Shown here piece by piece: positions 3,975 through 49,833 of a DNA stretch of 61,553 nt (position 1 is the first letter of the stretch; the number at the start of each line of letters is the position of its first letter). The stretch is from Candidatus Parcubacteria bacterium. Its GTDB lineage: Bacteria; Patescibacteriota; Minisyncoccia; Phycocordibacterales; Phycocordibacteraceae. The position numbers and the translations under genes were made by a program. The DNA lies in contig JAKFXG010000002.1 in the NCBI GenBank assembly GCA_021731495.1, positions 1-61,553 on the forward strand. The letters are read 5' to 3'. Under the pieces are notes generated by a model that saw nothing but the letters and a program-made list of their open reading frames with translations, did not search any database and was not told the DNA's origin.

Positions 3975-5129
3975 ATGGGAATGAAACGCCTTGCCCCGTA
4001 TCTTGGTGTCATTGTCGCCATCGTATTTACGGTGTCTGCCGTCGCTGTTGCAAACTCGGTAACCATTCGGCTGACTCCTGTTCCAAATACGCCAGTTGCA
4101 TCCTCTACGCTTTCGGTGCGGCCCAATCTCGATGCGCCGCCCATACCGCTACCGAGTTCTGAATTGGCCGCGAACACAGAAAGCGCTTCTCCGGCGCAAG
4201 CGACATCTACCGCGAAGAAGGTGTCGCCCGCGCCCGTGTCGGCTGTTGCTCCTACCCCAGCCCCTATCCCGACCCAGCCTCAACCTTCCGCGGGGAACGC
4301 CGCTGCACTCGATGCTACTGCACTTGCACTACGCGAAGCTCTCGTAAATATCATTTGTTATGCTCCTGCAGGGGGTGTTCTGCGCTCACTTTCTGGAAGC
4401 GGCGTCATCATTGATACGAAGGGCATTATCCTCACCAACGCGCATATTGCTCAAAATTTCCTCCTGGCCGACCGCGGTGTCTCATGCTCTATTCGCGCGG
4501 GTAGTCCGGCTGTGAAAAGGTATGAGGCCGCGCTCATCTTCATTTCATCCGCATGGCTAAACGCGAACGCGAGCGTGCTCACACAATCGGCGCCGAGCGG
4601 CACGGGCGAATATGACTTTGCGCTTCTTGCTATCACAAAGAGCGCGACGGTGACACCGCTCCCTGCCCAATTCCCATTTTTGCCGCTCGCAGAGACACCC
4701 TCTCCTCCCGGCACGCCAGTTGTCATCGGTTCATACGGGGCACAATTCCTCGAGTCGAGCCAGATACAGTCTTCTCTCTTCCCCACGGTTGTTTTCGGTT
4801 CGGTGAAAAATGTATTTACATTTGGGAAGAACACTATCGACGTGCTTGCGCTTGGGGGGTCAGCGGCCGCGCAACAGGGATCTTCCGGTGGCGGCATTGC
4901 TGATGCGAGGGGCATGCTTGTGGGCACTATCACCACAAGCACAATCGAAGGCGCCACCGACACCCGCTCACTCGATGCCATTACCGCCTCCTACATTCGG
5001 GCACAATATGCGAACGAAACCGGAAGCGCTCTCGACGCGCTTCTCGCTAAACCGACGGCTGCTGCCACAGCAGACTTCGCGCCTCAAATGCCTACGCTCG
5101 AGTCGGTTATAACCGCTCATTTACCCTAA
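3975..5129 (+). CDS. membrane-anchored trypsin-like (S1/HtrA-like) serine peptidase
   Basis: N-terminal TM, Pro/Ala-rich linker, GSGVIIDTKGIILTNAHI and GSSGGGI motifs. Confidence 0.75.
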   Translation: MGMKRLAPYLGVIVAIVFTVSAVAVANSVTIRLTPVPNTPVASSTLSVRPNLDAPPIPLPSSELAANTESASPAQATSTAKKVSPAPVSAVAPTPAPIPTQPQPSAGNAAALDATALALREALVNIICYAPAGGVLRSLSGSGVIIDTKGIILTNAHIAQNFLLADRGVSCSIRAGSPAVKRYEAALIFISSAWLNANASVLTQSAPSGTGEYDFALLAITKSATVTPLPAQFPFLPLAETPSPPGTPVVIGSYGAQFLESSQIQSSLFPTVVFGSVKNVFTFGKNTIDVLALGGSAAAQQGSSGGGIADARGMLVGTITTSTIEGATDTRSLDAITASYIRAQYANETGSALDALLAKPTAAATADFAPQMPTLESVITAHLP

Positions 5130-5270
5130 TCCGCAAAGTCGGACTGGCTAGACCCATTTAGGCCGATATGGCTGGCACATTCTGTCAGAAACAAAGTCGG
5201 GGTGCGGAGAATCGGACTCCGTCATCTTAAATTTCTTATGGAAATTTCCACAGAAGTCTCCCAGACTTCT

Positions 5271-5416
5271 GGTCACAACATTTTCTAAACCAACTATTTA
5301 GTCACACTGTCGGGGTGCGGAGAATCGGACTCCGTCATCTTGCTCCCAAAGCAAGCGTACTACCGGTATACGACACCCCGACACTGCGACCAAAAATCTA
5401 AGAAAATGTTGTGACC
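5271..5416. mobile_element. 146-bp unit bounded by perfect 16-bp inverted repeats that carries the intact tRNA-Pro (MITE-like, tentative)
   Basis: GGTCACAACATTTTCT at 5271-5286 is the exact reverse complement of 5401-5416. Confidence 0.4.
5310..5380 (-). tRNA. tRNA-Pro (anticodon UGG), no encoded CCA, T-loop TCCGATT
   Basis: Acceptor CGGGGTG/CACCCCG, anticodon arm CTTGC-TTTGGGA-GCAAG, T arm CGGAG-TCCGATT-CTCCG. Confidence 0.85.
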
Positions 5417-5431
5417 CCAAAGCAAGCGTAC

Positions 5432-5499
5432 TACTGCCAAGCGAGCCGAGCAACAAGTGAATTCCAATTCATTTGTTCGAGGCGAGCGAAGGGAGAAAG
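5432..5499. repeat. about 68-nt hairpin repeat, copy A (TACTGCCAAGCGAG...GGGAGAAAG), inside the D-loop of the broken tRNA-Pro
   Basis: Its first 14 nt are identical to 28501-28514. The central hairpin differs in sequence but still pairs, and the 3' block GAGCG..GG.AGAAAG is shared. Confidence 0.5.
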
Positions 5500-5578
5500 C
5501 TCTGCTTACCGGTATACGACACCCCGACTTTACTTCTGAACCCGCGCATCCCAGCCCATCTGGTCCACCATATCATCA

Positions 5579-5998
5579 TCAGACGATTTGTGGCAGATAG
5601 GAGACACGAGCCGTACCGTCTCGACGACGCATCCACACAAGGATTCCATCCACTTGCCAATCCCCTCCCCAGTTTTTCTCAAGAACATACCACTCCCCTG
5701 TTCGGGCAACCTTTCGCACCTTCGCCTCGTGGAGATTCAATGATGGGTCATAATCGTCATTTGCACTTTTTTCATCACGAAACTCGTCCACAAGTATCGT
5801 CTTAACTTCAACAAAATGAAGGGTGTTCTCCTTCTCCACAATGAGATCGAGTTCACCCGTCTTTCGTGCGATATTGCGATCGCGAACACTGAATCCGTGT
5901 CGCTTAAGGTACTCGGCCGCAATGCTTTCCCCAAGTGCGCCAACCTCTTTTCGGCTCTTAGAAGAAATGTCCACGGCCCGGTCAGTACAAGATGGCAT
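5579..5998 (-). CDS. YraN-family (UPF0102) endonuclease-like protein
   Basis: GALGESIAAEYLKRHGF...ELDLIVEKENTLHFVEVKT is typical of YraN. The start is uncertain (5998 or 6040). Confidence 0.7.
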   Translation of the reverse strand: MPSCTDRAVDISSKSRKEVGALGESIAAEYLKRHGFSVRDRNIARKTGELDLIVEKENTLHFVEVKTILVDEFRDEKSANDDYDPSLNLHEAKVRKVARTGEWYVLEKNWGGDWQVDGILVWMRRRDGTARVSYLPQIV

Positions 5999-6235
5999 TA
6001 CTCCCCGTGTCTGCCTTGTTAGTAAGTTCCACGAACCCATTATTGTTTACGAGTGGAATGCGAGCAAGTCGTATTCTGGAGTTGAAGACACTATGCCATC
6101 TTGTCCTACCGGGCACGGCCTTTAGAAATGCGGCTCATTTGTTAAGTATTTCATAGACTTATCAAAAAGTCTGATGTCCTTTATCCCCAGTACTAACAGG
6201 TTTATCCACTTCCAACACAAAACGAAAAGACACAC

Positions 6236-6261
6236 AAAAACGGCCAAATTTAGCCGTTTTT
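6236..6261. terminator. bidirectional hairpin terminator
   Basis: AAAAACGGC-CAAATTTA-GCCGTTTTT. Confidence 0.5.
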
Positions 6262-6314
6262 GCTCAGTTTTGCATGCTATACTGCCAATCGGTGAAATTT
6301 TAAAGGAAGATCCC

Positions 6315-6500
6315 ATGCTCTGTTCGTTTGAATGTGACTGTCCTTTCGACCCGGAAACACTTGAGCGCTTGAGCGCAAAAATGAAATGCTCCAAGGACAC
6401 GACACAAGTGCTTGAGGTCATCAAAGAAGCAAATAACGCCTCTTTTGGCGGTGGCTGTTGTATACAGGTCTTGAAACTCATCCCACGAGGACTAGTCTAA
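6315..6500 (+). CDS. small Cys-rich hypothetical protein (61 aa)
   Basis: AAGGAAG SD 6 nt before the ATG; the stop codon lies in the loop of the 6486-6510 hairpin; AT-rich; no family recognised. Confidence 0.3.
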   Translation: MLCSFECDCPFDPETLERLSAKMKCSKDTTQVLEVIKEANNASFGGGCCIQVLKLIPRGLV

Positions 6501-6510
6501 CTAGTCCTCG
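6486..6510. terminator. perfect 11-bp hairpin (CGAGGACTAGT-CTA-ACTAGTCCTCG)
   Basis: Read directly; followed by TTTCGTT on the + strand; lies downstream of tRNA-Gly on the - strand. Confidence 0.45.
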
Positions 6511-6528
6511 TTTCGTTCTATAAGTCGG

Positions 6529-6599
6529 TGCGGGCAGGGATAATCGAAATCCCGTCTCATCCTTGGCAAGGACGTGTTCTACCACTGAACCATGCCCGC
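6529..6599 (-). tRNA. tRNA-Gly (anticodon GCC), no encoded CCA
   Basis: GCGGGCA acceptor, anticodon loop TTGCCAA, T arm GGGAT-TTCGATT-ATCCC. Confidence 0.9.
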
Positions 6600-6832
6600 T
6601 TCAGGCGACATGATACCATGCCACCCTTTCATTTTTCCAGTGCCCCAACCAGGATCGCGATTACGCTTATCGAAACTTACAGTTTCAGTACACTTCATTC
6701 AGCAGAATGACTCTTGGAGTACGCGGATTTTCTCTTCGCGCAAACGCTCGATAAAATGCTCGCAAAGTCTTCGATTCCTGGCCGCACGTCCCCCAGACGT
6801 GCTTCGGGGCACATCCTCGCTATGTTCGTATG

Positions 6833-6904
6833 TGCCCCGACCAGGAATCGAACCCAGAATTCGACGTCCGAAGCGTCGCGTGATATCCGTTTCACCATCG
6901 GGGC
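6833..6904 (-). tRNA. tRNA-Arg (anticodon UCG), no encoded CCA
   Basis: GCCCCGA/TCGGGGC acceptor, D arm GTGA-AACGGATA-TCAC, anticodon arm CGACG-CTTCGGA-CGTCG. Confidence 0.85.
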
Positions 6905-6961
6905 TAAAACGACACCTTGTGTCGTTCGCCCGAACATTTCACCTTGCAAAATGTTTTAGGG
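6904..6961 (+). repeat. double-hairpin palindromic element, copy e (intergenic, abuts the tRNA-Arg 5' end)
   Basis: CTAAAAC-[GACAC/GTGTC hairpin]-GTTCGCCCGA-[ACATTT/AAATGT hairpin]-TTTAGGG. Confidence 0.65.
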
Positions 6962-7021
6962 CGTACCTGCATACTACTACTAAGCGAGCCGAGACACGAG
7001 CAATTATGCTACGATTCTCAC

Positions 7022-8485
7022 ATGGAATACCGTATCCCAAGCGAAGTCTCCAAAGTCTCCGAAGGATTACGGAAGGCTGGATTCGAGGCGTACCTTGTTG
7101 GGGGGTGCGTCCGCGACCTCATAATCGGTAGAGAGCCGAAAGATTGGGATCTCACTACAAATGCAACTCCTGAGCAGATCCAAGGCGTATTCCCTGATTC
7201 TTTCTATGAAAATGACTACGGAACTGTCGGCGTAAAGACAGGTTCGGAGGACGGGCGTCTTGCCATTGTTGAAGTAACCCCCTATCGCACGGAGTCTGAG
7301 TACTCTGACAAGCGCCGACCCGACAAAGTAGAGTTCGGTGCTTCCCTTCTGGAAGATCTGGCACGTCGCGACTTCACCATCAATGCTATTGCCCTCGAAG
7401 ACTCTAAAGGACATCTGGTTGACCCGTACGACGGTCAAAAGGACATAAAGGACAAGTTGGTGCGTGCCGTCGGTAATGCCAGCCAGCGGTTCAATGAGGA
7501 CGCTCTACGCATGCTTCGTGCAGTCCGTCTCGTAGCTGAGCTTGAATTCGGTATAGACGGCGACACTGCCACTGCAATAAGCGAAAATAGCAAGCATTTA
7601 GGCCAAGTTTCACGTGAAAGAATACGAGATGAGCTCATAAGGATATTGAATTCGAGTAAGCCGATGGATGCACTCGTCCTGGCTCAGAGGCTTGGAATAC
7701 TAGAATTCATAGCGGCAGACCTTATTCGCGGTATTGGTATTGAGCAAAACCAGGCGCATAGCTTTGACGTTTTCGGACATAATCTCCGCACCATGCAGCA
7801 CGCGGCTGATAAGGAGTGGGATTTTGATATCCGTCTCGCTGGTCTTTACCACGACATTTCAAAGCCGGAGACTCGTCGCTGGTCAGAAGAAAAGAAAGAT
7901 TGGACCTTCCATGGACACGAGGTGGTTGGTTCACGTGTAACGAAAAAGGCCCTTGAGGACCTACATTTTTCACGTGAAACGATAGAAAAGGTAGTAAAAC
8001 TGGTCCGTTGGCACATGTTTTTCTCTGATCCGGAGCAGATTACTCTCTCCGCCGTACGGCGCATGATTACGAACGTCGGTGAGGAAAACATATGGGATCT
8101 ACTTAATCTCCGTATCTGCGACCGTATAGGAACTGGCAGGCCTAAGGAACAGCCCTTCCGCTTCCGCAAATACAAGGCGATGGTTGACCAGGCGCTTCGC
8201 GACCCTATCTCCGTGACCATGCTTAAAACGGATGGAAATAGGATTATGGACAAGTTCCACGTGAAACCTGGACCGAAGATAGGTTGGGCACTCAACGCTC
8301 TCCTCGAGGAAATACTTGATGATTCTGCTAAGAATACCGAGGAATATCTCGATAAAAGAACCAGTGAATTGCTCGCTCTATCAGAAAATGACCTTAAAGT
8401 GCTCGGAGAATCGGGGAAAAAGAAGAGGGAAGAGAAGGAAGATGAGGAAATAAAGCATATAATGGAGAAATATCACGTTTGTTGA
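7022..8485 (+). CDS. cca: CCA-adding tRNA nucleotidyltransferase with HD domain
   Basis: GGCVRDLIIGREPKDWDLTT head-domain motif plus a C-terminal HD region. The Met at 7022 fits the family N-terminus. Confidence 0.85.
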   Translation: MEYRIPSEVSKVSEGLRKAGFEAYLVGGCVRDLIIGREPKDWDLTTNATPEQIQGVFPDSFYENDYGTVGVKTGSEDGRLAIVEVTPYRTESEYSDKRRPDKVEFGASLLEDLARRDFTINAIALEDSKGHLVDPYDGQKDIKDKLVRAVGNASQRFNEDALRMLRAVRLVAELEFGIDGDTATAISENSKHLGQVSRERIRDELIRILNSSKPMDALVLAQRLGILEFIAADLIRGIGIEQNQAHSFDVFGHNLRTMQHAADKEWDFDIRLAGLYHDISKPETRRWSEEKKDWTFHGHEVVGSRVTKKALEDLHFSRETIEKVVKLVRWHMFFSDPEQITLSAVRRMITNVGEENIWDLLNLRICDRIGTGRPKEQPFRFRKYKAMVDQALRDPISVTMLKTDGNRIMDKFHVKPGPKIGWALNALLEEILDDSAKNTEEYLDKRTSELLALSENDLKVLGESGKKKREEKEDEEIKHIMEKYHVC

Positions 8486-8821: not shown

Positions 8822-9634
8822 TTATAAGAACGTTATGGAAAGAGGGCAGTGGTCCGAGCCATAAATGTCAGGGTGGATTTCTGCCTTTTTGATCCGCTTC
8901 ATGAACTCACTTGCGACGAAGAAGTAATCGATACGCCATCCAACGTTTCTATCACGCGCGCGGATCTTCATATCCCAATACGTATATGCGTCCTTAGTCT
9001 GAGGGTGGAAGTGGCGGAATGAGTCCACGTATCCCGCCGCAACGACTTCGTCTATCCACGCCCGCTCTTTCGGCAAAAAGCCTGTATTTTCTTCGTTTTC
9101 TTTCGGTCTTGCGAGGTCGATCTCCTCATGGGCCGTGTTCACATCGCCGCAAAATATGACCGGTTTCTGCTTGCGCAGCTTCTCTGCAAAGGTGAGAAAG
9201 GCATCATAATATCGCAGTTTATAGTCGAGTCGTTCGGGACCCTGGCCACCATTGGGGAAGTAGATGTTCAAGAGCCAGAAGTCTTCAAATTCAGCCCCGA
9301 TGAGCCGACCCTCCTGGTCGAATTCCCTTATACCCAGGCCATAAATGACTTTCAAGGGTTCGACCTTGGAATAAATGGCGACGCCGCTATAACCTTTCCT
9401 TAGTTGCGAGGAAGAAAAGAATGACGAGAACCCAGCAGGGGAGCGCATGGCCTCCGGAATCTGTTCGGGACTCGCTTTAGTCTCCTGGAGGCAGAAAATA
9501 TCGGGCTTGGTGCCCTTCAAAAAAGATTCCCAATAGCCATTATTTGCAAGGGAACGCAGGCCGTTTACATTCCAGGAGACGATCTTCACTGGACTATTGT
9601 AGCGCAGGTCGGGTCTAATTCCGACTTTTCCCAT
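8822..9634 (-). CDS. xth: exodeoxyribonuclease III (AP endonuclease)
   Basis: VKIVSWNVNGLRS, QETK, GDVNTAHEEIDL, SDHCPL motifs. Start taken at the Met at 9634; overlaps the Xer gene stop. Confidence 0.9.
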   Translation of the reverse strand: MGKVGIRPDLRYNSPVKIVSWNVNGLRSLANNGYWESFLKGTKPDIFCLQETKASPEQIPEAMRSPAGFSSFFSSSQLRKGYSGVAIYSKVEPLKVIYGLGIREFDQEGRLIGAEFEDFWLLNIYFPNGGQGPERLDYKLRYYDAFLTFAEKLRKQKPVIFCGDVNTAHEEIDLARPKENEENTGFLPKERAWIDEVVAAGYVDSFRHFHPQTKDAYTYWDMKIRARDRNVGWRIDYFFVASEFMKRIKKAEIHPDIYGSDHCPLSITFL

Positions 9635-10535
9635 GGTACTTCTTATGGATTTCGCGGAGGTGCGAGTCTGTGATGTGCGTGTAAATCTGCGTTGTGTTGA
9701 TAGAGGCATGGCCGAGGAGCTGCTGGACGGAGCGAATATCGGCGCCGTTACTCAGTAAGTCAGTAGCAAACGCATGGCGAAGGGTATGGGGCGTGACCAC
9801 ATTCGTAATACCGGCCCGCGTAACATATGCCTTCAAGTGGCGTTGAACGTCGCGGGGGATGATGCGATGCAATTTATTCGGCCTACCGTCTACAAAGAGA
9901 GCTTCTTCCATATCGTTTCGTGCTTTCAAGTATTCGCGTACGGCTTCTTTGGCAGCAGGGGAGAGGAAGACGACGCGCACCTTCTCACCCTTACCGCGTA
10001 CGGATAGCTCGTCGCGTGAGAGGTCAATGTCAGAATTGAGCGCGCAGAGTTCAGACACACGCAGTCCGGTTGAAAAGAGCATCTCAAGGATAGCGCTGTC
10101 TCGCAGGTACATGCGCTCTTTGTCGGGGTCTTTTGCCTTTTTAAATGCTTCTCGCGGTGCCTGCATGAGGCGCTCAAGTTCGGTAGGGGTGATTAGGTCC
10201 AGCTGTCGCTCAGGAAGCTTCGCAAGCTCTATTTTCTCAGGAGAAATGGCGGGAATATCGCGTTTTCTGAGGAATTTGAGGAAAGCGCGCAGCGCGATCA
10301 TGTAGTAATTCTGGGTCCGGCGCTTCATGGAACCGGCAGCCGTACCCGGCTGCCGGTTGAGCCAGAGCCGGAACTCGCGGACATTCTGCTCAGTGATGTC
10401 ACTCACGTCTTTTATGCCCATCTGCGCGAAATAGCGGGTGAGATACCGGTCGTAGTTTTCAATCGTTTTCACCGCGCGGCCGCGCTCGATCTCAATATGC
10501 TCAAGGAATTGGCGTTTTGCCGTCTCGGCGTTCAT
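9615..10535 (-). CDS. tyrosine site-specific recombinase, XerC/XerD type
   Basis: C-terminal HTLRHAFATDLL...GADIRSVQQLLGHASINTTQIYTH. Start at MNAETAKRQFLEHIEIERG. Confidence 0.9.
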   Translation of the reverse strand: MNAETAKRQFLEHIEIERGRAVKTIENYDRYLTRYFAQMGIKDVSDITEQNVREFRLWLNRQPGTAAGSMKRRTQNYYMIALRAFLKFLRKRDIPAISPEKIELAKLPERQLDLITPTELERLMQAPREAFKKAKDPDKERMYLRDSAILEMLFSTGLRVSELCALNSDIDLSRDELSVRGKGEKVRVVFLSPAAKEAVREYLKARNDMEEALFVDGRPNKLHRIIPRDVQRHLKAYVTRAGITNVVTPHTLRHAFATDLLSNGADIRSVQQLLGHASINTTQIYTHITDSHLREIHKKYHGKSRN

Positions 10536-10699
10536 TAAAAGTAGTTTAACACTGTACTTCGCACAATATTCAATGTTATTGATAGGTATAGTAGTCACGT
10601 GTATGATTAATCTCAGAAGCACCCTGACTCCACTTACGGATAAAGGGTCTCGTTTGTGCCAAACTTAACCCAGTAAATCCTCATTAAGGAGGAGTCATC

Positions 10700-12332: not shown

Positions 12333-12375
12333 ATGCCACCAAAACGCCCCGCTCTGCGGGGCGTTTTGGTGGCAT
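12333..12375. terminator. perfect 20-bp hairpin with an internal terminator core
   Basis: ATGCCACCAAAACGCCCCGC-TCT-GCGGGGCGTTTTGGTGGCAT. Confidence 0.6.
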
Positions 12376-16844: not shown

Positions 16845-17114
16845 GATGACCCCGAACCCTGCGACGAATACTATGCACTGTTCGGCGATTCGGTATGTAC
16901 CCGGTCTCGTGTCTTGCGGCAGCGAGTCGGGGGATTTCGGATTTAAATCAATAGAAAAACTAGGGGAATGTGGTGTGTCTGCGAATACAAAAATGGCCTA
17001 AATACCCTGTATATAAGCCATTTCTTGAATACTTTCTTATCAGTCGATACTTGGAGTATAGCCGAGTGGGAACGGGAGTCAATTAACCCGTCCGATAGCT
17101 GTGGAGAGCGGTTT

Positions 17115-19094
17115 GTGCGCTATATTCGAACAGTGAACTACCTCGAAGGATTAAATGATGCGCAGAAACGGGCGGTGCTCGCGGTGGATGGTCCGATATC
17201 GGTTCTTGCCGGTGCCGGAAGCGGGAAAACACGCGTGCTCACGACGCGTATCTATCATCTTGTCCGGACCGGTGTTCCCGCGAACCAAATTCTTGCCGTT
17301 ACCTTCACCAACAAGGCCGCCCGAGAAATGCGCGCCCGGGTCCGCACGATGCTCGGCGAAGATACTTCCTCGGCTGTTCCTTTCATTGCCACTTTTCATG
17401 GTCTCGGACGCGAATTACTGGAAACGTACGGGAAGGTTATGGGCATCCCCCGCTTTTTCAGCGTATACGATCGCGATGATTCGGAAAAAGCGATCAGCGC
17501 GGCGCTCAAGGCGCTTGATGTTGAAGCAAAAGAACTTTCGCCGCGTGCGGTTCTGGGGCGCATCTCGCGCGCAAAAGGGGAGGGAATGAGGGCGAATGAG
17601 TTTTACGAGAAACATACACGCTCGGGATTTGGCGCACGGATCGCCGCGGAGGCCTGGCTTCGTTACGAGAAAACACTCGCCGCAGAGAAGGCGCTCGACT
17701 TCGATGATCTCATCGCCCTTCCGACGCGGATGCTCGAGGAGCATGCTGATATTCGCGCGCTTGCGCAGGAACGCTGGAAATATATTCATATCGATGAGTA
17801 TCAGGATACAAATGAGTTACAAGAAAGACTCACCAGTCTTCTTGCAGAAAAACATAAGAATCTTTTCGTAGTGGGAGACGGCGACCAGTCGATATACGGA
17901 TGGAGAGGGGCGAAGATGGAAAACATTTTGAATTTTGAGAAAAGATACCCAGGATCTCAGACGATTATTCTCGAACGGAATTACCGTTCGACGAAAAATT
18001 TGGTTGATGCGGCAAACGCGGTTATCGAAAAGAACAAAAATCGCAAGGAGAAATACTCAACGACCGAACGCGCCGCGGGCGCGCCTATTGTGGTCCATAT
18101 GGCGCAAAGCGCCGAGGACGAAGCGCGTTGGATTGCACTAAAAATACGGGAGCTGATGAAAAGCGGGGCTACTCCCCTAAACGCGCCGCGAAGCGGCGCG
18201 TCGGGCGAACAGGTAAAACCTGTTTTAGCCGAAGAAATTGCGATATTATTTCGTACGAATTTCCAATCGCGTGCACTTGAGGAAGGATTGCTTCATGCGG
18301 GCGTGCCCTACAAGTTGCTCGGTACGCACTTCTTTGCGCGCAAGGAAGTGAAAGATGTTCTTGCATGGGTGCGACTCGCGATGGACCCTTCACGCGAGGT
18401 GGATAAGCTTCGCGCGGCGGCTTCACCATCGCGGGGTATCGGGAAAGTAACGCTCGGAAAACTTGCCGCGGGGCAGCGCTCTCTCCTGCGTGCGGGCGAG
18501 CTTGCGAAGGTTGAACAGTTTGAAAGTGTTATCGACGAACTTTCTCAGGCCGCACACTCATTAGTACCTTCTGAATTCGTGAAGCTCATCATTGAGAAGA
18601 GCGGCATGCGCCGGGCCCTCCTTGAAGAGGGGAGTGCGGATGACCGTGAGCGTTTCGAGAACGTTGAGGAAATCGCTTCAGTGGCTGCGCGACACGATGC
18701 GGTTGCTGGGCAGGAAGGTATCGCCGCCTTTCTCTCTGAAGCCGCACTGTCGAGCGATCAGGATGAGATGGATCAAGGAGAGAAAACCGGCGTCACTCTC
18801 ATGACCGTTCATGCGGCAAAGGGTCTTGAATTCGGAACGGTTTTCGTGAGCGGTATGGAGGAAGGGCTCTTCCCGCACCAGGGCATGGGTGGAGAGAAAG
18901 ACCGTGACGAAGAAGAGGAGCGTCGATTATTCTACGTGGCGATGACGCGCGCAAAAGAAAGGCTCTTCCTCACACTCGCGCGTATCCGTAAGATTTATGG
19001 CACTGATTATGCGGCAGAACCGTCGTCTTTTCTTGCCGACATCGACGGATCGCTGACGCTCTTCGATGAAACAGAGGGAGAAGAGATCTATTGA
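17115..19094 (+). CDS. UvrD/PcrA/Rep-family ATP-dependent DNA helicase
   Basis: LNDAQKRAV, AGAGSGKT, VTFTNKAAREM, DEYQDTN, VGDGDQSIYGWRGA, TVHAAKGLEF motifs. GTG at 17115 follows GGAGAG. Confidence 0.9.
   Translation: MRYIRTVNYLEGLNDAQKRAVLAVDGPISVLAGAGSGKTRVLTTRIYHLVRTGVPANQILAVTFTNKAAREMRARVRTMLGEDTSSAVPFIATFHGLGRELLETYGKVMGIPRFFSVYDRDDSEKAISAALKALDVEAKELSPRAVLGRISRAKGEGMRANEFYEKHTRSGFGARIAAEAWLRYEKTLAAEKALDFDDLIALPTRMLEEHADIRALAQERWKYIHIDEYQDTNELQERLTSLLAEKHKNLFVVGDGDQSIYGWRGAKMENILNFEKRYPGSQTIILERNYRSTKNLVDAANAVIEKNKNRKEKYSTTERAAGAPIVVHMAQSAEDEARWIALKIRELMKSGATPLNAPRSGASGEQVKPVLAEEIAILFRTNFQSRALEEGLLHAGVPYKLLGTHFFARKEVKDVLAWVRLAMDPSREVDKLRAAASPSRGIGKVTLGKLAAGQRSLLRAGELAKVEQFESVIDELSQAAHSLVPSEFVKLIIEKSGMRRALLEEGSADDRERFENVEEIASVAARHDAVAGQEGIAAFLSEAALSSDQDEMDQGEKTGVTLMTVHAAKGLEFGTVFVSGMEEGLFPHQGMGGEKDRDEEEERRLFYVAMTRAKERLFLTLARIRKIYGTDYAAEPSSFLADIDGSLTLFDETEGEEIY
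18175..18228 (-). repeat. double-hairpin palindromic element, copy c (54 nt, in frame inside the helicase gene)
   Basis: Its reverse complement reads CTAAAAC-[AGGT/ACCT]-GTTCGCCCGA-[CGCGCCGC/GCGGCGCG]-TTTAGGG. Confidence 0.7.
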
Positions 19095-19097
19095 AGA

Positions 19098-19439
19098 TTA
19101 AGCAGCTTCTTCTTCGTTGTGTGGTTTTGGCGGCGGGACATCTTTGATTTTGAGGAGGTCTTTTAACGACTCTTCGATAACCTTTCTTTCCTTTGGTTTA
19201 AGGTCATGCCGACCTTCGTAGTGGTTATCTAAAAAATCTAATGCCATGTCGACGTGCTTATCCTGCATTCCATACTGCAAATCTCGTTTTCTTTCTACAT
19301 GAGAGACAGCAGCCTTCGTCGCCTCGTTAACACGAGCGCGTCCTTGCTCGTTTAAACCGGCAAGATGTTGTAAGTGAGTAAACCTCTCGCGTGCCGGCCC
19401 ATGCTCAAGACTTACTTGTGTAAGTTTGCGGTTGTTCAT
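19098..19439 (-). CDS. hypothetical charged protein (113 aa)
   Basis: Uninterrupted ORF convergent with the helicase and divergent from rsmA. No motif recognised. Confidence 0.45.
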   Translation of the reverse strand: MNNRKLTQVSLEHGPARERFTHLQHLAGLNEQGRARVNEATKAAVSHVERKRDLQYGMQDKHVDMALDFLDNHYEGRHDLKPKERKVIEESLKDLLKIKDVPPPKPHNEEEAA

Positions 19440-19461
19440 ACAACCAGTATTGTACATCGAT

Positions 19462-20313
19462 ATGATGCGCGCCAAAAAATCGCTTGGGCTAAAACCATCA
19501 GTGCATCTGATGGTTCGCCCGACGCGTCGCCGGGCGGCGCGTTTAGGGCAAAACTTTCTCATGCACGCACGTATTGCGGAGCGCATAGCGCTCGTTGCAC
19601 AGCTTGCACCGGATGCAACGGTATTTGAAATCGGTCCGGGAACGGGCATGCTCACGCGAGAACTCCTAAAGCGTGCGGGCAAAGTAATTGCCCTTGAAGC
19701 GGATTACGAACTTTTCGAAAAGTTACGGACTGAATTTTCGTCTGAAATTGCGGACAATCGTCTCGAACTCATGCACGGCGACATACGCACGTTTGATATT
19801 TCGACGCTCCCAAAAGGGTACGTGCTCGTCGCGAACATTCCGTACTATCTCACGGGCGAAATATTCCGCATGTTCCTCGAATCAGAAAATCAGCCGAGTG
19901 CGATGACACTGCTCGTGCAAAAGGAAGTTGCCGAGCGCATCGCTCGCTCCAAAAAAGAAAGTATTCTCTCCCTTTCGGTAAAGGTGTATGGCACACCGAA
20001 GCGCGAATTTGTGGTACCTCGCGGAGCGTTCAGGCCGGCACCAAATGTGGATTCCGCGGTGCTGACCGTCCGTAATATTTCACGAAATAATTTCGCATCC
20101 CGTAGCGAAGAAGAACGATTTTTCGCGCTGATACATGCAGGATTTGCGCATAAACGGAAGTTCGTGCGCACAAACCTTATTGATGCTGGATTGATTCCGG
20201 CTAAAACCGCCGGAGGCGATTCGCCCGACGCGCCATTGAATGGCGCGTTTAGGGAGAAAGCGCGTGCCGAGGATGTCCCACTCTCCACATGGCTTATTCT
20301 TTGTCGTCTCTAA
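19462..20313 (+). CDS. rsmA: 16S rRNA (adenine1518/1519-N6)-dimethyltransferase
   Basis: LGQNFL, EIGPGTGMLT and NIPYY motifs. Carries two repeat-element insertions. Confidence 0.9.
   Translation: MMRAKKSLGLKPSVHLMVRPTRRRAARLGQNFLMHARIAERIALVAQLAPDATVFEIGPGTGMLTRELLKRAGKVIALEADYELFEKLRTEFSSEIADNRLELMHGDIRTFDISTLPKGYVLVANIPYYLTGEIFRMFLESENQPSAMTLLVQKEVAERIARSKKESILSLSVKVYGTPKREFVVPRGAFRPAPNVDSAVLTVRNISRNNFASRSEEERFFALIHAGFAHKRKFVRTNLIDAGLIPAKTAGGDSPDAPLNGAFREKARAEDVPLSTWLILCRL
19489..19548 (+). repeat. double-hairpin palindromic element, copy a (60 nt, in frame in the rsmA N-terminus)
   Basis: CTAAAAC-[CATCAG/CTGATG]-GTTCGCCCGA-[CGCGTCGC/GCGGCGCG]-TTTAGGG. Deleting it joins KSLG to QNFL. Confidence 0.75.
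20201..20254 (+). repeat. double-hairpin palindromic element, copy b (54 nt, in frame in the rsmA C-terminus)
   Basis: CTAAAAC-[CGCC/GGCG]-ATTCGCCCGA-[CGCGCCAT/ATGGCGCG]-TTTAGGG. Confidence 0.7.
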
Positions 20314-20379
20314 TGCACATGTACACGTAGATAGTCCCTATCTCCCGGCAGTGCGACTGTTATACTTGAGAGCGATACC

Positions 20380-21420
20380 ATGGGGGAAGGAATATTTAAA
20401 AATTGGCGGGTTTTAGTCTCAACACTCTTTTCGGTGGTACTTGTTGTCGGCGCATTCGTGCTTGCACGCGGTATTGAATCGCCTCCTATCGCGCAAGCGT
20501 CAGCCGAGGCCGCACTTTTGGGCGCGATTGCAGTGAAAGATTCTGACGCGGACGGCCTCCCCGACTGGGAGGAGGGACTTTATGGTACCGACCCGCGTAT
20601 TACCGACACGTCAAAACTCGGCATGACCGATGGTCAGGCAGTCGCCCGCGGCCTCATCGTGCCGAGGGCCATCGCCAATATCTCCGTCGCGACCTCATCG
20701 CCCAGTACGCCGCTTATTGTAGATAGCTCACTGCCGCCTGCGCCCGCGGAAGGTACGCTCACGGCCGCCTTTGCGAAGAATTTCTTCACCATGTACCTCT
20801 CTATGAAGGAGTTGAAAGGGGGCGCGGATCTCACTGAAGCCGACATGCAGGAGGTCGCGAGCCAGGCTCTCAGCACTCTTTCGGAAGCCATCACCATCGC
20901 GCCTGATTTCAAATCCGCAAAAGATCTCAAAATCTCTGGTTCAGGAGCGGAGGCTCTCAAAGAGTTCGCGGTGAACGCAGAAGCAATACTTCTGAAGAAT
21001 AAGAGCAGTGCTTCAAAAAGCGAACTGCTCTACTTACAAGATGCGGTTCAGAACAACGATGCTACAGGGCTTCCGCACATAGACTCGATCGCCAGGGCGT
21101 ATCGGGATTCCGCGGTCGGGCTCGCCGTACTTCCTGTGCCGCAGGAACTTGCATCAGCCAACCTTGCACTCATTAATGCGCTCATGCGTGTGAGCCAGAT
21201 CTCCGGCGACTTCGTGCAAGTGAACACTGATCCTCTCGTGACCATATTGGCTCTTCAGCAGTATTCGCCGGCGGTGCTTGCGCTCGGCACCGCGTTTAAA
21301 GACATTGGAGAAGTCTACAAAACCGCCGGCATATCGCTTGCCGCAGGAACGCCGGGCGCGTCTTTCGTGAATCTCATTACCGATGTCGCAGACAAGCAGG
21401 CAGCTGCTAAGAAACTATGA
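20380..21420 (+). CDS. hypothetical membrane-anchored extracytoplasmic protein
   Basis: N-terminal TM WRVLVSTLFSVVLVVGAFVLA; a DSDADGLPDWEEGLYGTDP (thrombospondin type 3-like) motif. Confidence 0.7.
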   Translation: MGEGIFKNWRVLVSTLFSVVLVVGAFVLARGIESPPIAQASAEAALLGAIAVKDSDADGLPDWEEGLYGTDPRITDTSKLGMTDGQAVARGLIVPRAIANISVATSSPSTPLIVDSSLPPAPAEGTLTAAFAKNFFTMYLSMKELKGGADLTEADMQEVASQALSTLSEAITIAPDFKSAKDLKISGSGAEALKEFAVNAEAILLKNKSSASKSELLYLQDAVQNNDATGLPHIDSIARAYRDSAVGLAVLPVPQELASANLALINALMRVSQISGDFVQVNTDPLVTILALQQYSPAVLALGTAFKDIGEVYKTAGISLAAGTPGASFVNLITDVADKQAAAKKL

Positions 21421-25514: not shown

Positions 25515-26504
25515 ATGGACGATACTATTACAAAAGAACAGGTGTTGAATGCCTACAATAATGCGCCAGATTTCGTTCGCGCCGCATTCAACGACGAAGT
25601 AACGACCCAGGTAGTTGTGGGGTTAAAGGCGAAATTCCAACTTCACATCGATATGGCCGGCATCCTTGCTAAGGAAGTGGGATACTTGCTTCTCGGTGTT
25701 ATCGATCCAGATACGTTTGCAAAACGCCTCAAGACTAGTGGTTTTTCTGAACAGATGGTTACAGAAATTATGGCCGAGCTCAATCAAAAAGTATTTGTTC
25801 CCCTGCGAACAAAAATGAGACGTGAGGGAGTAGAGACGGGCCAGACACCCGCTCCTGTCGCAAAGGTTCCACAACAGAGACCGATGGCGCCGCCGCCAAC
25901 TCCCACGGTAGGGGGAGTCTCCTCCTATTCTCCGCCTTTGCAGTCCCCGCGATATTCATACCCAGAGAATCCAATGCCTACCCAACCCCAGTATCAATCT
26001 ATTTCTAAGATCGCACCCTTGCCGCCGAAAAATGTGCTCCCACGCCCACCTTCACTTCCAGCTGTAGGAGGGTCACGCCCGGTTTCGGGACAAGTTCCAA
26101 AGCCAATGGACGCGAGCAGAATGCTCGAAGACCATGAGGAGCCGCATATCGAATTCAATAAAACACCTCCTGCGCCTGGTGTTCCTGTACGGGAGAAAAG
26201 AGTGGAAACGCCGCTCGGACAAGCATTGCGAACGGTGATGCCCTCAGTGCCTCCCACAAATCTTCCGGGCGTCATGCCAAAAAGTATCGCTCCCGGCGCT
26301 CGATACTCCTCATATACGGTCACCCCAAAGGCCAGCCCGGTTACTCCACCCATTCCCCCGAAACCAATTCCTCCCGTTACCCCTCCTGCTCCCCTAAACG
26401 CTTCGCCACGCGAGGCACCGGGCGAACATTATGCAAAGCAGAATGTTGTAGCCGCCAAACCCTATTCGGCCGACCCCTACCGCGAACCAATTGATGAAAA
26501 ATAG
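25515..26504 (+). CDS. hypothetical protein, about 100-aa N-domain then a long Pro-rich tail
   Basis: ORF tightly linked to the upstream gene. Carries repeat copy d near its C-terminus. Confidence 0.65.
   Translation: MDDTITKEQVLNAYNNAPDFVRAAFNDEVTTQVVVGLKAKFQLHIDMAGILAKEVGYLLLGVIDPDTFAKRLKTSGFSEQMVTEIMAELNQKVFVPLRTKMRREGVETGQTPAPVAKVPQQRPMAPPPTPTVGGVSSYSPPLQSPRYSYPENPMPTQPQYQSISKIAPLPPKNVLPRPPSLPAVGGSRPVSGQVPKPMDASRMLEDHEEPHIEFNKTPPAPGVPVREKRVETPLGQALRTVMPSVPPTNLPGVMPKSIAPGARYSSYTVTPKASPVTPPIPPKPIPPVTPPAPLNASPREAPGEHYAKQNVVAAKPYSADPYREPIDEK
26392..26451 (-). repeat. double-hairpin palindromic element, copy d (60 nt, in frame, diverged)
   Basis: Its reverse complement reads CTACAAC-[ATT/AAT hairpin]-GTTCGCCCGG-[GCCTCG/CGAAGC]-GTTTAGGG. 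Confidence 0.55.
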
Positions 26505-30914: not shown

Positions 30915-30954
30915 TCACCCCAGTACCACAACCTCGGTTGGCTACGGGGCAAGC
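30915..30954. repeat. left arm of the inverted repeat bracketing tuf-rpsJ (CCCCAGT...ACGGGGCAAGC hairpin family)
   Basis: Matches the reverse complement of 32614-32662 with one mismatch and a 9-nt loop indel. Confidence 0.7.
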
Positions 30955-30996
30955 GTCGGATATTCGTGATTAATTATTAACGTTATCCGATTTACT

Positions 30997-32196
30997 ATGG
31001 CAGAATTTAATCGAAGCAAGCCGCACATGAACGTGGGCACCATCGGTCACGTGGACCATGGAAAGACGACTCTCACCGCAGGTATCCTGCATGTTCTCTC
31101 GATGCTCACCGGCGAGGGCTACAGCGCCCGCGTTGAAGGCGTCGATAAGATCGACAGTGCACCTGAGGAAAAGGCGCGCGGTATTACTATTGCGCTCCAC
31201 CACTCGGAGTACGAGTCACCAAACCGTCACTACGCGCACATTGATGCGCCAGGACACGCTGACTACATCAAGAACATGATCACGGGCGCCGCCCAAATGG
31301 ACGGAGCCGTACTTGTGGTTGCCGCAACTGATGGTGTGATGCCTCAGACACGTGAGCACATCCTCCTTGCAAAGCAGGTGGGTCTCAAGAAGCTCATCGT
31401 TTTCCTTAACAAGGTAGACATGGTTGCCGAGGCTGACCTCATCGACCTCGTCGAAGAGGAAATCCGCGAGCTTCTGACCAAGCAGGGCTACGATGGTGCC
31501 GCTACGCCGATTATCCGCGGTTCGGGCCTTAAGGCTCTTGAATCAAAGGATGTCAGCGACGAGTGGGCACAGAAGGTTAAGAGCCTTGTTGACACGATGG
31601 ACACATACTTCGACCAGCCTGAGCGCGAAGTATCGAAGCCGTTCCTCATGCCTATCGAAGACATCTTCTCGATCGAAGGTCGTGGCACCGTGGTCACTGG
31701 CCGTATCGAGCGCGGTGTTGTGAAGGTAGGTGAAGAAGTTGAGATCGTCGGTATTAAGGCGACCGTCAAGACGACCGTCACCGGTATCGAAATGTTCAAC
31801 AAACAGCTCCAGGAAGGTATGGCGGGCGACAACGCCGGCATTTTGCTCCGCGGTACGAAGAAAGAAGACGTGCATCGCGGCCAGGTCCTCGCAAAGAGCG
31901 GCTCGGTCACTCCGCACACCGACTTCGAAGCCGAGGTCTACATTCTCGGCAAGGATGAAGGCGGTCGCCACACGCCATTCTTCTCGGGTTACAAGCCGCA
32001 GTTCTACATCCGCACAACGGACGTCACCGGTGAAGTAACGCTCGCAGAAGGAAAGGAAATGGTCATGCCAGGAGACACGGTCACTTTCAAGGTGAAGCTC
32101 GTTGCTCCGGTTGCGCTCGAAGCACAACAGCGCTTCGCCATTCGCGAAGGAGGTAAGACGGTCGGTGCCGGTGTCGTGACGAAGATCACTGCGTAA
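30997..32196 (+). CDS. tuf: elongation factor Tu
   Basis: [31 protein letters not shown]. Confidence 0.98.
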
Positions 32197-32221: not shown

Positions 32222-32611
32222 ATGGCTACAGCGACAACAGCAAAACCTAAAGCGAAGAGCGCCCCAAAGCGTGCCGCGAAAAAGGTCGCAGCCCCGGCTC
32301 CTGTGGAGCATAAGCTCCGCATCCGTGTCCGCGCCTATGAGCACAAGATTCTCGATCTCTCGGTGAAGCAGATCATGGATACTGCAGCCCGCTTTGATGC
32401 CGTCGTTGTCGGCCCTGTGCCGCTTCCGACTGAGATCAAGCGCTGGACCGTGAACCGTTCGACGTTCGTCCACAAAGACGCTCGCGAGCAGTTCGAGATG
32501 CGCATCCATAAGCGTCTCATCGACATCCTCAACCCCTCGCCGAAGGTCATCGAGGCCCTTACCAATCTGAACCTGCCAAGTGGTGTCACGATTGACGTGA
32601 AGATGGTATAG
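32222..32611 (+). CDS. rpsJ: 30S ribosomal protein S10 with a Lys/Ala-rich N-terminal extension
   Basis: KLRIRVRAYEHKILD...GPVPLPT... core, preceded by about 28 extra residues. Confidence 0.95.
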   Translation: MATATTAKPKAKSAPKRAAKKVAAPAPVEHKLRIRVRAYEHKILDLSVKQIMDTAARFDAVVVGPVPLPTEIKRWTVNRSTFVHKDAREQFEMRIHKRLIDILNPSPKVIEALTNLNLPSGVTIDVKMV

Positions 32612-32613
32612 AT

Positions 32614-32662
32614 GCTTGCCCCGTAGCCAACCGAGCAAAGCGAGGTTGTGGTACCGGGGTGA
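32614..32662. repeat. right arm of the inverted repeat bracketing tuf-rpsJ (GCTTGCCCCGT...CCGGGG)
   Basis: Begins 3 nt after the rpsJ stop; reverse complement of 30915-30954. Confidence 0.7.
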
Positions 32663-49030: not shown

Positions 49031-49091
49031 CTAGCGGTAGTGTACCGCCGCTCCTATCAAATGTTGACTACGACCGTGGTACACTTTTGAT

Positions 49092-49673
49092 ATGGGAATC
49101 GTAGAGTCGGAAGCGAGGAAGAAGCGTGTGTATACCAACGTGCAACAAGCATTGCTTGTTACGGTCGCACTCACTGGTGTGGCTCTTGTTGCAGCCATAG
49201 CGCCGAATACGCCCGCGGCGTTGGCTAAATTACCGAGTGTAAAAAGAGCACAACTGCGATATCAATACAGAACGGCACTTGGAAGGCTCGCCGCAAAAGG
49301 ACACATCGTCTTTGAAAAACGCGACGGGAAACAGTATGCCAGGATTACCGAGTCGGGTCGCAAGGTTCTCGTGTTCGAGCAAGAGAAAGTGAAGTTCAGC
49401 GTCACTAGAAAAAGACGATGGAACGGGAGATGGCGAGTGGTCATTTTCGACATACCTGAACGCCGTCGCCGGACACGAGATCGACTCAGGAATCTGATGC
49501 TAGAGACAGGTTTTGTGCGGCTCCAGGATAGCGTCTGGGTCTTCCCTTACGACTGCGAGGATTTCATTTCTTTAGTAAAAGCGGAGTTAAAAATCGGTTC
49601 GGCCATCTTGTACATGGTTGTTGAACACATAGAAAATGATACGCATCTGCGTGCCCACTTCGGTCTGAAATAA
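49092..49673 (+). CDS. PaaX-like protein (hydrophobic N-segment, winged helix, Cas2-fold-like WRVVIFDIPE...LQDSVWVFP domain)
   Basis: The W.GRWRVVIFDIPERRRRTRDRLRNLMLETGFVRLQDSVWVFP pattern is typical of the PaaX central domain. Confidence 0.65.
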   Translation: MGIVESEARKKRVYTNVQQALLVTVALTGVALVAAIAPNTPAALAKLPSVKRAQLRYQYRTALGRLAAKGHIVFEKRDGKQYARITESGRKVLVFEQEKVKFSVTRKRRWNGRWRVVIFDIPERRRRTRDRLRNLMLETGFVRLQDSVWVFPYDCEDFISLVKAELKIGSAILYMVVEHIENDTHLRAHFGLK

Positions 49674-49769
49674 GTCTCGGATACCAGCGCGAGCATATCA
49701 AAAGTTATATACGACCGTTGTATTAATTTGATATCTTCCATTATCTTGTGGTACACAGATGAAAGCCAA

Positions 49770-49833
49770 CGCCATCGTTCCCGAGTCAGGGCAGACCTGG
49801 GAGATTACCAAGGATTCAGTGAAAAAGATTTAA
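49770..49833 (+). pseudogene. 51-bp direct repeat, copy 2, forming an orphan 3' fragment of the beta-CASP gene (AIVPESGQTWEITKDSVKKI*)
   Basis: Identical 51 nt, then a diverged tail with its own stop and terminator. Confidence 0.7.

Follow-up and report, generated by a model that had tools for sequence, protein, structure and literature searches.

An in-frame copy of a very small palindromic element in a UvrD/PcrA helicase gene of a Parcubacteria bacterium

The stretch of DNA analysed here, called the window below, comprises 61,553 nucleotides of contig JAKFXG010000002.1 (assembly GCA_021731495.1) from a Candidatus Parcubacteria bacterium. One of its genes encodes a UvrD/PcrA-type DNA helicase, and this gene contains a short palindromic element that has relatives elsewhere in the window and in many other genomes. 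We consider it very probable that positions 18175-18228 belong to a family of mobile palindromes and that this copy lies in frame and is translated. By itself the copy in the helicase gene is ordinary for this family, and it is the family that is the interesting object.

The palindrome in the helicase gene and its sister copies

The host gene and the parts of the element are as follows.

17115-19094, plus strand: UvrD/PcrA-type helicase gene, 659 amino acids as deposited (P0001, a database protein of identical sequence, has Pfam domains PF00580, PF13361, PF13245 and PF13538)
18175-18230, minus strand: complete element copy including both junction GG dinucleotides (covariance-model match of 62.6 bits, E 2.2e-12, model positions 1-62)
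18229-18230, minus strand: 5' junction dinucleotide GG (CC on the coding strand, within the Ala codon GCC)
18222-18228, minus strand: conserved left arm CTAAAAC, which pairs with the right arm TTTAG as stem P1 (invariant columns in alignment A2; P1 99% paired)
18211-18221, minus strand: hairpin 1, AGGT-TTT-ACCT, whose sequence varies among copies (7 of 8 pairs with two-sided changes in 23 copies)
18201-18210, minus strand: conserved core GTTCGCCCGA, invariant in A2
18205 and 18204, minus strand: the two central C residues of the core, the proposed guide, complementary to both junction GG dinucleotides
18182-18200, minus strand: hairpin 2, CGCGCCGC-TTC-GCGGCGCG (8 of 8 pairs with two-sided changes)
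18175-18181, minus strand: right arm TTTAG with the 3' junction GG (CCCTAAA on the coding strand)

The open reading frame (ORF) of the host spans 16968-19094, or 708 codons, with the deposited protein starting at 17115; in the 653-residue helicase translation used here, the insert is residues 349-366. Read on the minus strand from 18230 to 18175, the element is GG CTAAAAC AGGTTTTACCT GTTCGCCCGA CGCGCCGCTTCGCGGCGCG TTTAG GG. An earlier note, which drew on the letters of the window alone, had taken the reverse complement of 18175-18228 (CTAAAAC AGGTTTTACCT GTTCGCCCG ACGCGCCGCTTCGCGGCGCG TTTAGGG) to be a match to a family consensus, and both the sequence and the covariance model confirm this. The unit proposed at that time does correspond to the element, although 18175-18230 describes its extent better because both junction GG dinucleotides are then included. 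In net terms 54 nt have been inserted, which can be written as 18175-18228 or, equivalently, as 18177-18230. In the minimum-energy fold of this copy the core CCC pairs with the 3' GGG, and the DNA-fold z-scores of the two strands are -4.65 and -5.31; an RNA fold was also computed.

Across the insert, the plus-strand frame of the helicase ORF reads PLNAPRSGASGEQVKPVLA(E), that is, P-LNAPRSGASGEQVKPVLA-E, and an insert-crossing peptide of the predicted helicase is, for example, SGASGEQVKPVLAEEIAILFR. The insert had been claimed to be missing from ordinary UvrD/PcrA proteins, and the homolog alignment agrees. Among the 120 closest homologs, which are 78-88% identical, 110 have no insert and run directly through ...G(T/x)xP|E(E/D)IAILFRTN, and the other ten, the protein of the window counted, carry an insert at exactly the same point, with a longer version in P0024. 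At the DNA level the empty sites read AAA CCT|GAA GAG in locus L123 and CTT CCC|GAG GAA in locus L126, and the filled site, ACT CCC [CTA AAC ... GTT TTA GCC] GAA GAA, is 54 nt longer. The solved structures of PcrA, Deinococcus UvrD, Escherichia coli UvrD, and mycobacterial UvrD1 all lack the insert. The comparison with helicases of other phyla, which do not have the insert, thus does not speak against an insertion. Most helicase orthologs of Candidatus Kaiserbacteria (Parcubacteria, Patescibacteria), the group in which source names place the organism of the window, lack it as well.

The host helicase matches the PcrA structure 1pjr with an E-value of 3.5e-136, and placing the insert on this structure locates it at PcrA residues 349/350. 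There the HMMER alignment has a gap of 17-18 residues directly before RYRDFAVLYRTNAQSR, which is motif IV of domain 2A. In an AlphaFold2 model of the helicase (mean pLDDT 76.9), residues 347-363 are coil with pLDDT values below 50 and are flanked by a helix (327-343) and by the motif-IV strand (369-373). The coil state and low pLDDT values indicate that the insert forms no part of the helicase fold and, as modelled, is a disordered loop on the surface of domain 2A. The description of the element as a dispersed family copy that lies in frame and in reverse orientation just before motif IV holds in all its parts.

A second kind of insertion was encountered among these helicases. Several Parcubacteria UvrD/PcrA orthologs of ~1010-1048 residues (P0024, P0032, P0035, P0046, and P0058) contain an intein (PF14890), and P0024 combines this intein with the lengthened palindromic insert. 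A helicase of the intein type is also present at locus L035 (ORF 4975-7995, minus strand).

The element is not alone in the window. The pattern TTCGCCCG-N(10-35)-TTTAGGG occurs five times where 0.03 occurrences are expected, and a covariance model (R1) built solely from copies in other genomes recovers exactly five window copies with E-values of 4e-14 to 3.5e-10, the next match having an E-value of 0.037. Because the number of copies so far exceeds expectation and R1 matches each of them, the observation is real and not a product of chance. The four sister copies are listed here.

19487-19548, plus strand: sister copy, 60 nt net, sense, splitting the KKSLG|QNFL N-terminal motif of the RsmA/KsgA methyltransferase
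20199-20254, plus strand: sister copy, 54 nt net, sense, in the second frame (AKTAGGDSPDAPLNGAFR), near the RsmA/KsgA C-terminus
26392-26453, minus strand: sister copy, 60 nt net, antisense, in frame, near the C-terminus of a proline-rich protein (ORF 25515-26504)
6902-6961, plus strand: sister copy, 58 nt net (not a multiple of three), intergenic, with its 5' GGC overlapping the 5' end of tRNA-Arg (6832-6904, minus strand)

Four of the five window copies are genic, with net lengths of 54, 60, 54, and 60 nt, and the intergenic one measures 58 nt. The copy at 26392 had been described as being read in the same antisense frame as the helicase copy and as giving a similar peptide, and this is correct, since it reads PLNASPREAPGEHYAKQNVVAA. 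Its stems are partly decayed (fold z-score -0.46), and its proline-rich host has no Pfam match.

Several further observations concern these copies. An in-frame ATG in the N-terminal KsgA copy at 19487-19548 (ATG GTT CGC CCG ...) would yield MVRPTRRRAARLGQNFL, and the copy could provide an alternative start together with the LG of the LGQNFL motif; identical GGG codons stand on both of its sides. Copies also cluster locally, with three in 2.1 kb of the window (UvrD, KsgA N-terminus, and KsgA C-terminus; 18175-20254), and two to three copies lie in the same UvrD-KsgA gene pair of three other Kaiserbacteria (L120, L121, and L124). At 12337-12371, a perfect GC-rich hairpin between CCAAAAC and GTTTTGG matches R1 weakly on both strands (E 0.04-0.1) and resembles either a one-hairpin relative of the element or an ordinary terminator.

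Spread, fold, and translation of the family

When one genome per species was scanned with an exact pattern, the element family was found at 119 or more loci, nearly all of them in metagenome-assembled genomes (MAGs) of Patescibacteria/Parcubacteria. Among the matches listed are Nomura-, Kaiser-, Vogel-, and Zambryskiibacteria, Paceibacterota, bins labelled “Saccharibacteria,” and one member of the Gracilibacteria. The single match in Acidobacteriota was set aside as a chance match that has no hairpins, and two scans of viral contigs for core variants gave 58 loci that were all chance matches without hairpins. Most loci were selected by the exact-core pattern, which makes the constancy of the core partly a matter of construction and overstates its conservation; the additional copies that R1 alone finds within the same loci are free of this selection and also keep the core. 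The G+C fraction inside copies ranges from 0.27 to 0.72, with stems that follow the composition of the host genome and unpaired parts that stay constant. In the MAG CAYZZT01, more than 10 loci have near-identical stems, which points to recent multiplication. We conclude that the family is a very small (~43-78 nt) non-autonomous mobile DNA palindrome distributed across the Parcubacteria (Candidate Phyla Radiation [CPR]/Patescibacteria).

The CAYZZT01 copies (L023, L035, L040, L041, L065, L069, and L074) have another peculiarity. Their hairpin loops are flipped among otherwise near-identical copies (TTGTACTCAA versus TTGAGTACAA), independently in hairpin 1 and hairpin 2, which suggests frequent inversion of single hairpins.

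Searches for known relatives and for polymorphism gave little. Rfam 15 at gathering thresholds finds only four tRNAs in the whole window, and no match was obtained with E-values up to 10 in 18100-20400, a region that holds three copies. A search of the literature on small mobile palindromes in CPR/Patescibacteria, which did not extend to subscription literature, found no description, and a 2024 review of prokaryotic MITEs (miniature transposable elements with inverted repeats) does not mention Patescibacteria (PMC10969869). All loci were also searched for left-only and right-only halves, for larger elements, and for stray GGCTAAAAC, GTTCGCCCG, and GTTTTAGGG, and only degenerate full copies were seen. 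With regard to strain polymorphism, the only other contig with an identical EF-Tu, JAKFYZ010000003.1 (GCA_021733385.1), carries the same copy; it is 99.99% identical to the window over 21.2 kb and makes more of this genome available.

The variable segments of the element form two hairpins. In an alignment of 23 sequences, 95% of the cells are paired and 15 of the 16 hairpin pairs show two-sided changes, with a covariation score of 0.79 compared to 0.17 for shuffles and 0.09-0.18 when the partner is slid by 1-3 columns. The backbone that is left when the hairpins are removed, CTAAAAC|GTTC-GCCC-GAAC|GTTTTAG, is a perfect palindrome in AT-rich copies and is short of one A-T pair in GC-rich copies, including the one in the helicase gene. 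One variable hairpin sits at the middle of each AAC^GTT. Given this palindromic backbone and the location of the two hairpins, a single strand can form a four-way junction with a GG outside on each side.

The reverse complement of the element has almost the same architecture and also scores with R1. Among ~1500 Watson-Crick pairs there are 32 G-T wobbles and 30 A/C mismatches, and the genic copies comprise 20 in sense and 16 in antisense orientation. Because G-T pairs are not in excess, both strands fold equally, and both orientations occur in genes, the conserved structure appears to exist at the level of DNA and of both strands rather than in a strand-specific RNA.

Copies within genes differ from other copies in their length. 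When an ORF of 600 nt or more extends across the copy, the length is a multiple of three in 32 of 36 cases; outside ORFs this applies to 23 of 92 copies. The four genic exceptions include at least one chance match and one case of faulty parsing. Inside long ORFs, where 36 of the 149 surveyed copies are located, only stop-free frames are used. These two properties indicate that genic copies are translated and not removed, and that selection holds them to multiples of three in stop-free frames. Three peptides recur as a consequence of the three usable readings.

Antisense: (P)LNA..SGE[QH]..VLA
Sense, first frame: LK..RP..LG
Sense, second frame: AKT..GSPD..FR[EG]

The host proteins are mostly essential and include TypA, FtsK, PheS (three loci), NusA (two loci), ArgS, DnaG, RF2, and Def, as well as Fmt, TsaD, TatD, L4, RuvA, KsgA, and UvrD at a second site. 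In five insert-bearing helicases, identical residues are encoded by identical codons with a frequency of 0.80 in the insert and 0.50 in the flanks, and the codons of the insert include CTA and TTA for Leu. We therefore regard the conservation of the peptide (LNA..SGEQ.KPVLA) as a by-product of conservation at the DNA level.

The same sites have been filled repeatedly. In a neighbor-joining tree of the 120 helicases, calculated with the insert columns removed, the ten insert-bearing proteins fall at six separate places, and each has a nearest neighbor that lacks the insert. The closest relatives of the window helicase (P0006 and P0002-4) have no insert, and the close-relative contigs L126 (P0006) and L123 (P0003) have no copy anywhere in the UvrD-KsgA neighborhood. 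At the N-terminal site of RsmA/KsgA (KKS|LGQNFL), the window and L121 both have a copy, and five other orthologs have none. The C-terminal site of RsmA/KsgA carries a sense copy in the window and antisense copies in L120, L124, and L116, and the same region of PheS is filled in three genomes, twice in sense and once in antisense orientation. Opposite orientations at one site mean that the copies do not descend from one inherited insertion, unless the element was inverted in place. To account for these distributions, the element must have been inserted independently and repeatedly at a small number of GG sites where it is tolerated, or have been lost precisely from many lineages, or both.

RNA genes are the other recurrent location. 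In at least 10 unrelated genomes (L001, L003, L005, L007, L021, L039, L065, L080, L103, and L106), a copy in the same orientation extends precisely up to the 5' end of mature tmRNA, and the GG after TTTAG forms the first two bases of the RNA; at L080, for example, the copy at 5098-5163 adjoins the tmRNA at 5162-5549. Several tRNA genes (Glu, Ser, Ile, and Thr) are abutted at their 5' ends in the same manner, and SmpB is the commonest neighboring protein of copies. If GG is the target, a build-up at the starts of RNA genes is expected because these often offer the first GG in AT-rich spacers and the gene is left intact. Two other copies (L136 4825-4888 and L142 6476-6537) are directly followed by GGAGGAAAGTCC and GGGGAAAGTCGG, which resemble CR-I of RNase P RNA, and these copies may lie inside or at the start of rnpB.

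Junction dinucleotides and the route of movement

GG is fixed at both junctions of the element. Although GG was no part of the search pattern, 126 of 131 copies have it at positions -2/-1 before CTAAAAC, and farther upstream there is only mild T-richness. The bases that follow TTTAG are also GG, and the net length of the element includes one GG. The CG...CG flanks of the helicase copies at L121 and L122 had suggested a variable 2-bp target-site duplication. A metagenome scan for copies without G at -2 gave 20 matches, 12 of which were real, and all had AG, TG, or CG on the 5' side and GG on the 3' side. Since the 3' flank is GG in 12 of 12 copies whose 5' flank is not, the flanks do not represent a duplicated variable target, and the CG...CG flanks of L121 and L122 are better explained by a matching change in the core. 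The absence of a variable target-site duplication also rules out a classical MITE of the terminal-inverted-repeat type.

All R1 matches were then tabulated by their 5' flank, the core triplet in GTTCG-NNN-G, and their 3' flank.

GG flank, CCC core, GG flank: 135 copies
CG flank, CGC core, CG flank: 2 copies (L121:5037 and L122:5037, probably one event)
GC flank, GCC core, GC flank: 2 copies (L080:3889 and L121:5965)
GA flank, TCC core, GA flank: 1 copy (L061:1986)
GG flank, ACC core, GG flank: 1 copy (L118:5655)

With the exception of the last entry, reverse complementation of the two central core bases gives the junction dinucleotide (GG/CC, CG/CG, GC/GC, and GA/TC), so that in each variant type a change in one central base is accompanied at both junctions by a change to the complementary base. 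When pairs are counted, with two tertiary pairs per flank, two-sided changes occur only in the proper register and are absent from slid controls, and none of 500 shuffles reaches the observed double changes or the covariation score; in the alignment concerned (A6), one locus is counted on both strands. This covariation between junction and core suggests that the central dinucleotide guides the choice of the junction dinucleotide.

A mechanism can be proposed on this basis and by analogy with known elements. Movement would proceed via folded single-stranded or cruciform DNA in which the hairpins serve as shape only, and the central CC would pair with the junction GG at both ends and thereby set the points of excision and insertion. 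Such a scheme would follow the logic of IS200/IS605 and REP-RAYT systems, in which a guide at the foot of a hairpin leads to cleavage 3' of the paired site, and would entail no target duplication and seamless excision. Whatever the mechanism, the point of entry into the helicase gene is established: the element went in between the codons for Pro and Glu before motif IV, at a GG that reads CC on the coding strand, and added exactly 18 codons.

Our overall explanation, in which a mobile palindromic family is combined with guided single-strand movement, is in our judgment the probable one. For the guided single-strand mechanism taken by itself we have less confidence, and we put it forward tentatively. 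More doubtful still is the fuller proposal that the family represents an undescribed, self-guided mini-transposon specific to Parcubacteria/CPR, namely a four-way junction of ~55 nt whose central bases programme excision and insertion by a conserved CPR enzyme and which writes loops into essential proteins. Under this proposal, a change of CC to CG, GC, or TC would retarget the element to CG, GC, or GA. Loops of 15-25 residues would have been written repeatedly into the helicase, KsgA, PheS, NusA, DnaG, RF2, and other proteins, and the same activity would have placed copies at the 5' ends of tmRNA and tRNA genes.

A number of points weigh against guided single-strand movement. The covariation of the guide rests on five variant copies that represent ~3-4 independent events, the ACC copy at L118 breaks the rule, and the exact-core selection described above inflates the apparent constancy of the core. 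In the CG and GC types, the two flanks are mutually complementary and could simply lengthen stem P1, an explanation that cannot account for the GA/TC case. Copies of opposite orientation lie less than 2 kb apart (18175, minus strand, and 19487, plus strand), unlike what a strict lagging-strand bias would give; the near-symmetry of the element could explain such proximity. IS200/IS605 elements have two separate tetranucleotide guides and termini that are not complementary, whereas the palindrome has one central guide of 2-3 nt and ends that pair (P1).

Enzymes were sought as well. Clustering of the ORFs at 119 loci revealed no Y1/HUH transposase and no serine or other recombinase enriched beside copies, and, in a weak test, queries for IS200, IS608, and RAYT proteins gave no phmmer match among the ORFs of the 1.1 Mb of loci, which are small parts of genomes; both results also count against the proposal. 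The neighbors of copies at the 119 loci are only housekeeping genes such as those for SmpB, FtsH, TypA, tRNA synthetases, and GyrB, and a Pfam search of 20 window ORFs found no HUH enzyme or serine recombinase.

Comparison with known elements and alternative explanations

In architecture and inferred logic, the closest counterparts are REP/BIME/REPIN sequences and the ends of IS200/IS605 elements, whose guide logic we take as published (PMC6006769). As in IS200/IS605 (PATEs), there is a hairpin near each end, and both hairpins of the palindrome are supported by compensatory changes. IS200/IS605 elements enter 3' of a short sequence that is fixed and do not duplicate the target, and a guide located 5' of a hairpin foot recognizes, by base pairing, the last bases of the right end and the flank of the target (PMC6006769). 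The GG junctions of the palindrome are compatible with cleavage of this kind at its left flank and right end, and CC(C)GA, immediately 5' of its hairpin 2, pairs with the GG(G) at the terminus. The palindrome differs in that no obvious strand bias and no tnpA/tnpB partner were seen in the loci of 8-20 kb, and the whole of it is smaller than one pair of IS608 ends with their linker. With REP/BIME/REPIN sequences it shares inverted doublets of short hairpins, many dispersed copies, and long persistence, and REP-RAYT systems likewise recognize shape plus a short guide beside the hairpin foot (PMC6006769). However, REPs are extragenic and species-specific in sequence, whereas the palindrome is often genic and translated and its core is found superphylum-wide. 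In addition, a GT[AG]G (or CGTC) tag precedes the hairpin foot of REPs, where all copies of the palindrome have AAAC and CCGA.

In behavior, the closest system is that of the Rickettsia palindromic elements (RPEs). Both consist of palindromic repeats that lie in frame in many unrelated housekeeping genes and also in intergenic and RNA-gene contexts, both add a peptide that is tolerated by the protein fold, and neither is known to have a mobilising enzyme (PMC10969869). RPEs are ~100-150 bp long, fall into ~ten sequence families, and are restricted to Rickettsia, whereas the element described here is 43-78 nt long, forms one family, and occurs in Parcubacteria. Its constant core of ~23 nt, free covarying hairpins, fixed GG junctions, and covariation of core and junction further set it apart from RPEs as described.

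The IS607 family offers the nearest match to the junctions and gives rise to the best of the competing explanations. IS607 elements insert only at GG with a preference for (G)GG, have GG termini, cause no target duplication, and can be excised without a scar; the source for these properties mentions no miniature palindromic derivative (PMC6188088). The palindrome likewise has GG at its termini and target and lacks a duplication. It might therefore have been moved as double-stranded DNA by a serine transposase of the IS607 type, with GTTCG-CC-CGAAC acting as a second, inverted recombinase site. Its GG...GG junctions and GGG empty site are IS607-like, and the circularised ends (GTTTTAG-GG-CTAAAAC) and the center (GTTCG-CC-CGAAC) both resemble inverted half-sites around a 2-bp crossover. 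Moreover, the covariation of core and junction fits a rule of “same dinucleotide, opposite orientation” equally well. Nevertheless, a double-strand route gives no reason for hairpins of free sequence to hold 95% pairing by compensatory changes, IS607 ends have direct subterminal repeats and no inverted repeats whereas the element is a palindrome, and no serine recombinase was seen near copies. IS607 elements are also 1.7-2.5 kb long, encode tnpA either alone or together with tnpB, and do not depend on hairpins, unlike a 54-60-nt element with no recombinase inside. We consider this route unlikely.

Slightly less likely again is the possibility that the copies are old and immobile and have been kept for the use of the host, for instance as bidirectional terminators or attenuators, in the processing or stability of tmRNA and tRNA leaders, or as sites bound by a conserved CPR protein, with the patchy distribution caused by repeated precise loss between GG repeats. 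The copies exactly at the mature 5' ends of tmRNA (at least 10 unrelated genomes) and of several tRNAs would suit this explanation, as would the conservation of the core across the superphylum, the greater conservation of synonymous sites in the insert than in the flanks, and the fact that each strand finishes with a hairpin and then GTTTTAG. Against it are the more than 10 near-identical copies in one MAG, which indicate recent bursts, the filling of the same protein sites in opposite orientations in different lineages, and the closest sister lineages, which lack all three UvrD/KsgA copies. Nor is there an obvious reason for a regulatory motif to lie in frame, in either orientation, in more than 20 essential genes, and some copies, such as the one at 26392, are visibly decaying.

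Removal of the insert at the level of RNA or translation, by a mini-intron, ribozyme-like self-excision, or bypass of the gene-60 type that leaves a helicase without the 18 residues, is very improbable: a conserved junction with free covarying helices does resemble a small ribozyme, both boundaries are complementary to a sequence inside the element, its reverse complement is built in the same way and either orientation could fold in mRNA, and the N-terminal KsgA copy is flanked by identical GGG codons, yet length and frame would then not matter, whereas 32 of 36 genic copies are multiples of three in stop-free frames only, a constraint on which both the bypass and the intron readings were rejected. 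There is also no excess of G-U over A-C, the codons that flank the helicase copy differ (CCC and GCC), Rfam 15 gives no match with E-values up to 10, and intergenic copies and copies that overlap tRNA genes on the opposite strand have no message to splice from.

Integron attC sites were considered as well. By inspection, CTAAAAC/GTTTTAG share only AAC/GTT with the attC boxes (RYYYAAC...GTTRRRY), which belong to a single bulged hairpin with the boundary in GTT. The two hairpins of the palindrome and its boundaries at GG, 7 nt outside AAC/GTT, likewise rule out attC. The element fails defining features of each of the RPE, REP/REPIN, IS200/IS605, and IS607 classes. Small, palindromic, non-autonomous mobile DNA is already known, and what is unusual here is the size of the element, the breadth of its conservation, and an insertion site that is apparently encoded by the element itself.

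If mobile palindromes with guided movement are indeed present in these bacteria, then the tiny, tightly packed genomes of CPR organisms carry a very small element that survives because it is translatable in four of six frames, and that continually supplies essential proteins with new surface loops. This would parallel the “protein-coding palindromes” of Rickettsia as the same solution in an unrelated lineage with reduced genomes. The covariation of core and junction would also point to a minimal piece of DNA that determines with its own nucleotides where it is inserted, which is of interest for programmable insertion. For genome annotation, the family would explain odd insertions of 18-20 residues and apparent splits of motifs (KKSLG|QNFL in KsgA) in Parcubacteria proteins, and its copies would mark the exact 5' ends of tmRNA and tRNA genes. 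The three peptide signatures given above could then be used to flag such inserts.

Some other features of the window deserve mention. An Xer-like tyrosine recombinase (PF00589 and PF02899) encoded at 9615-10622 on the minus strand is the only recombinase that Pfam identified in the 20 ORFs of the window that were searched. A direct repeat of 55 nt, 98% identical and with its copies 809 nt apart, is present at 48961-49015 and 49770-49824, near an inverted pair at 49055-49094 and 49694-49733. Finally, an inverted repeat of ~45 nt (30915-30957 and 32611-32662, 90-96% complementary) flanks tuf (30997-32196) and rpsJ (32222-32611), and could make a long-range stem that joins the 5' and 3' untranslated regions of the transcript.

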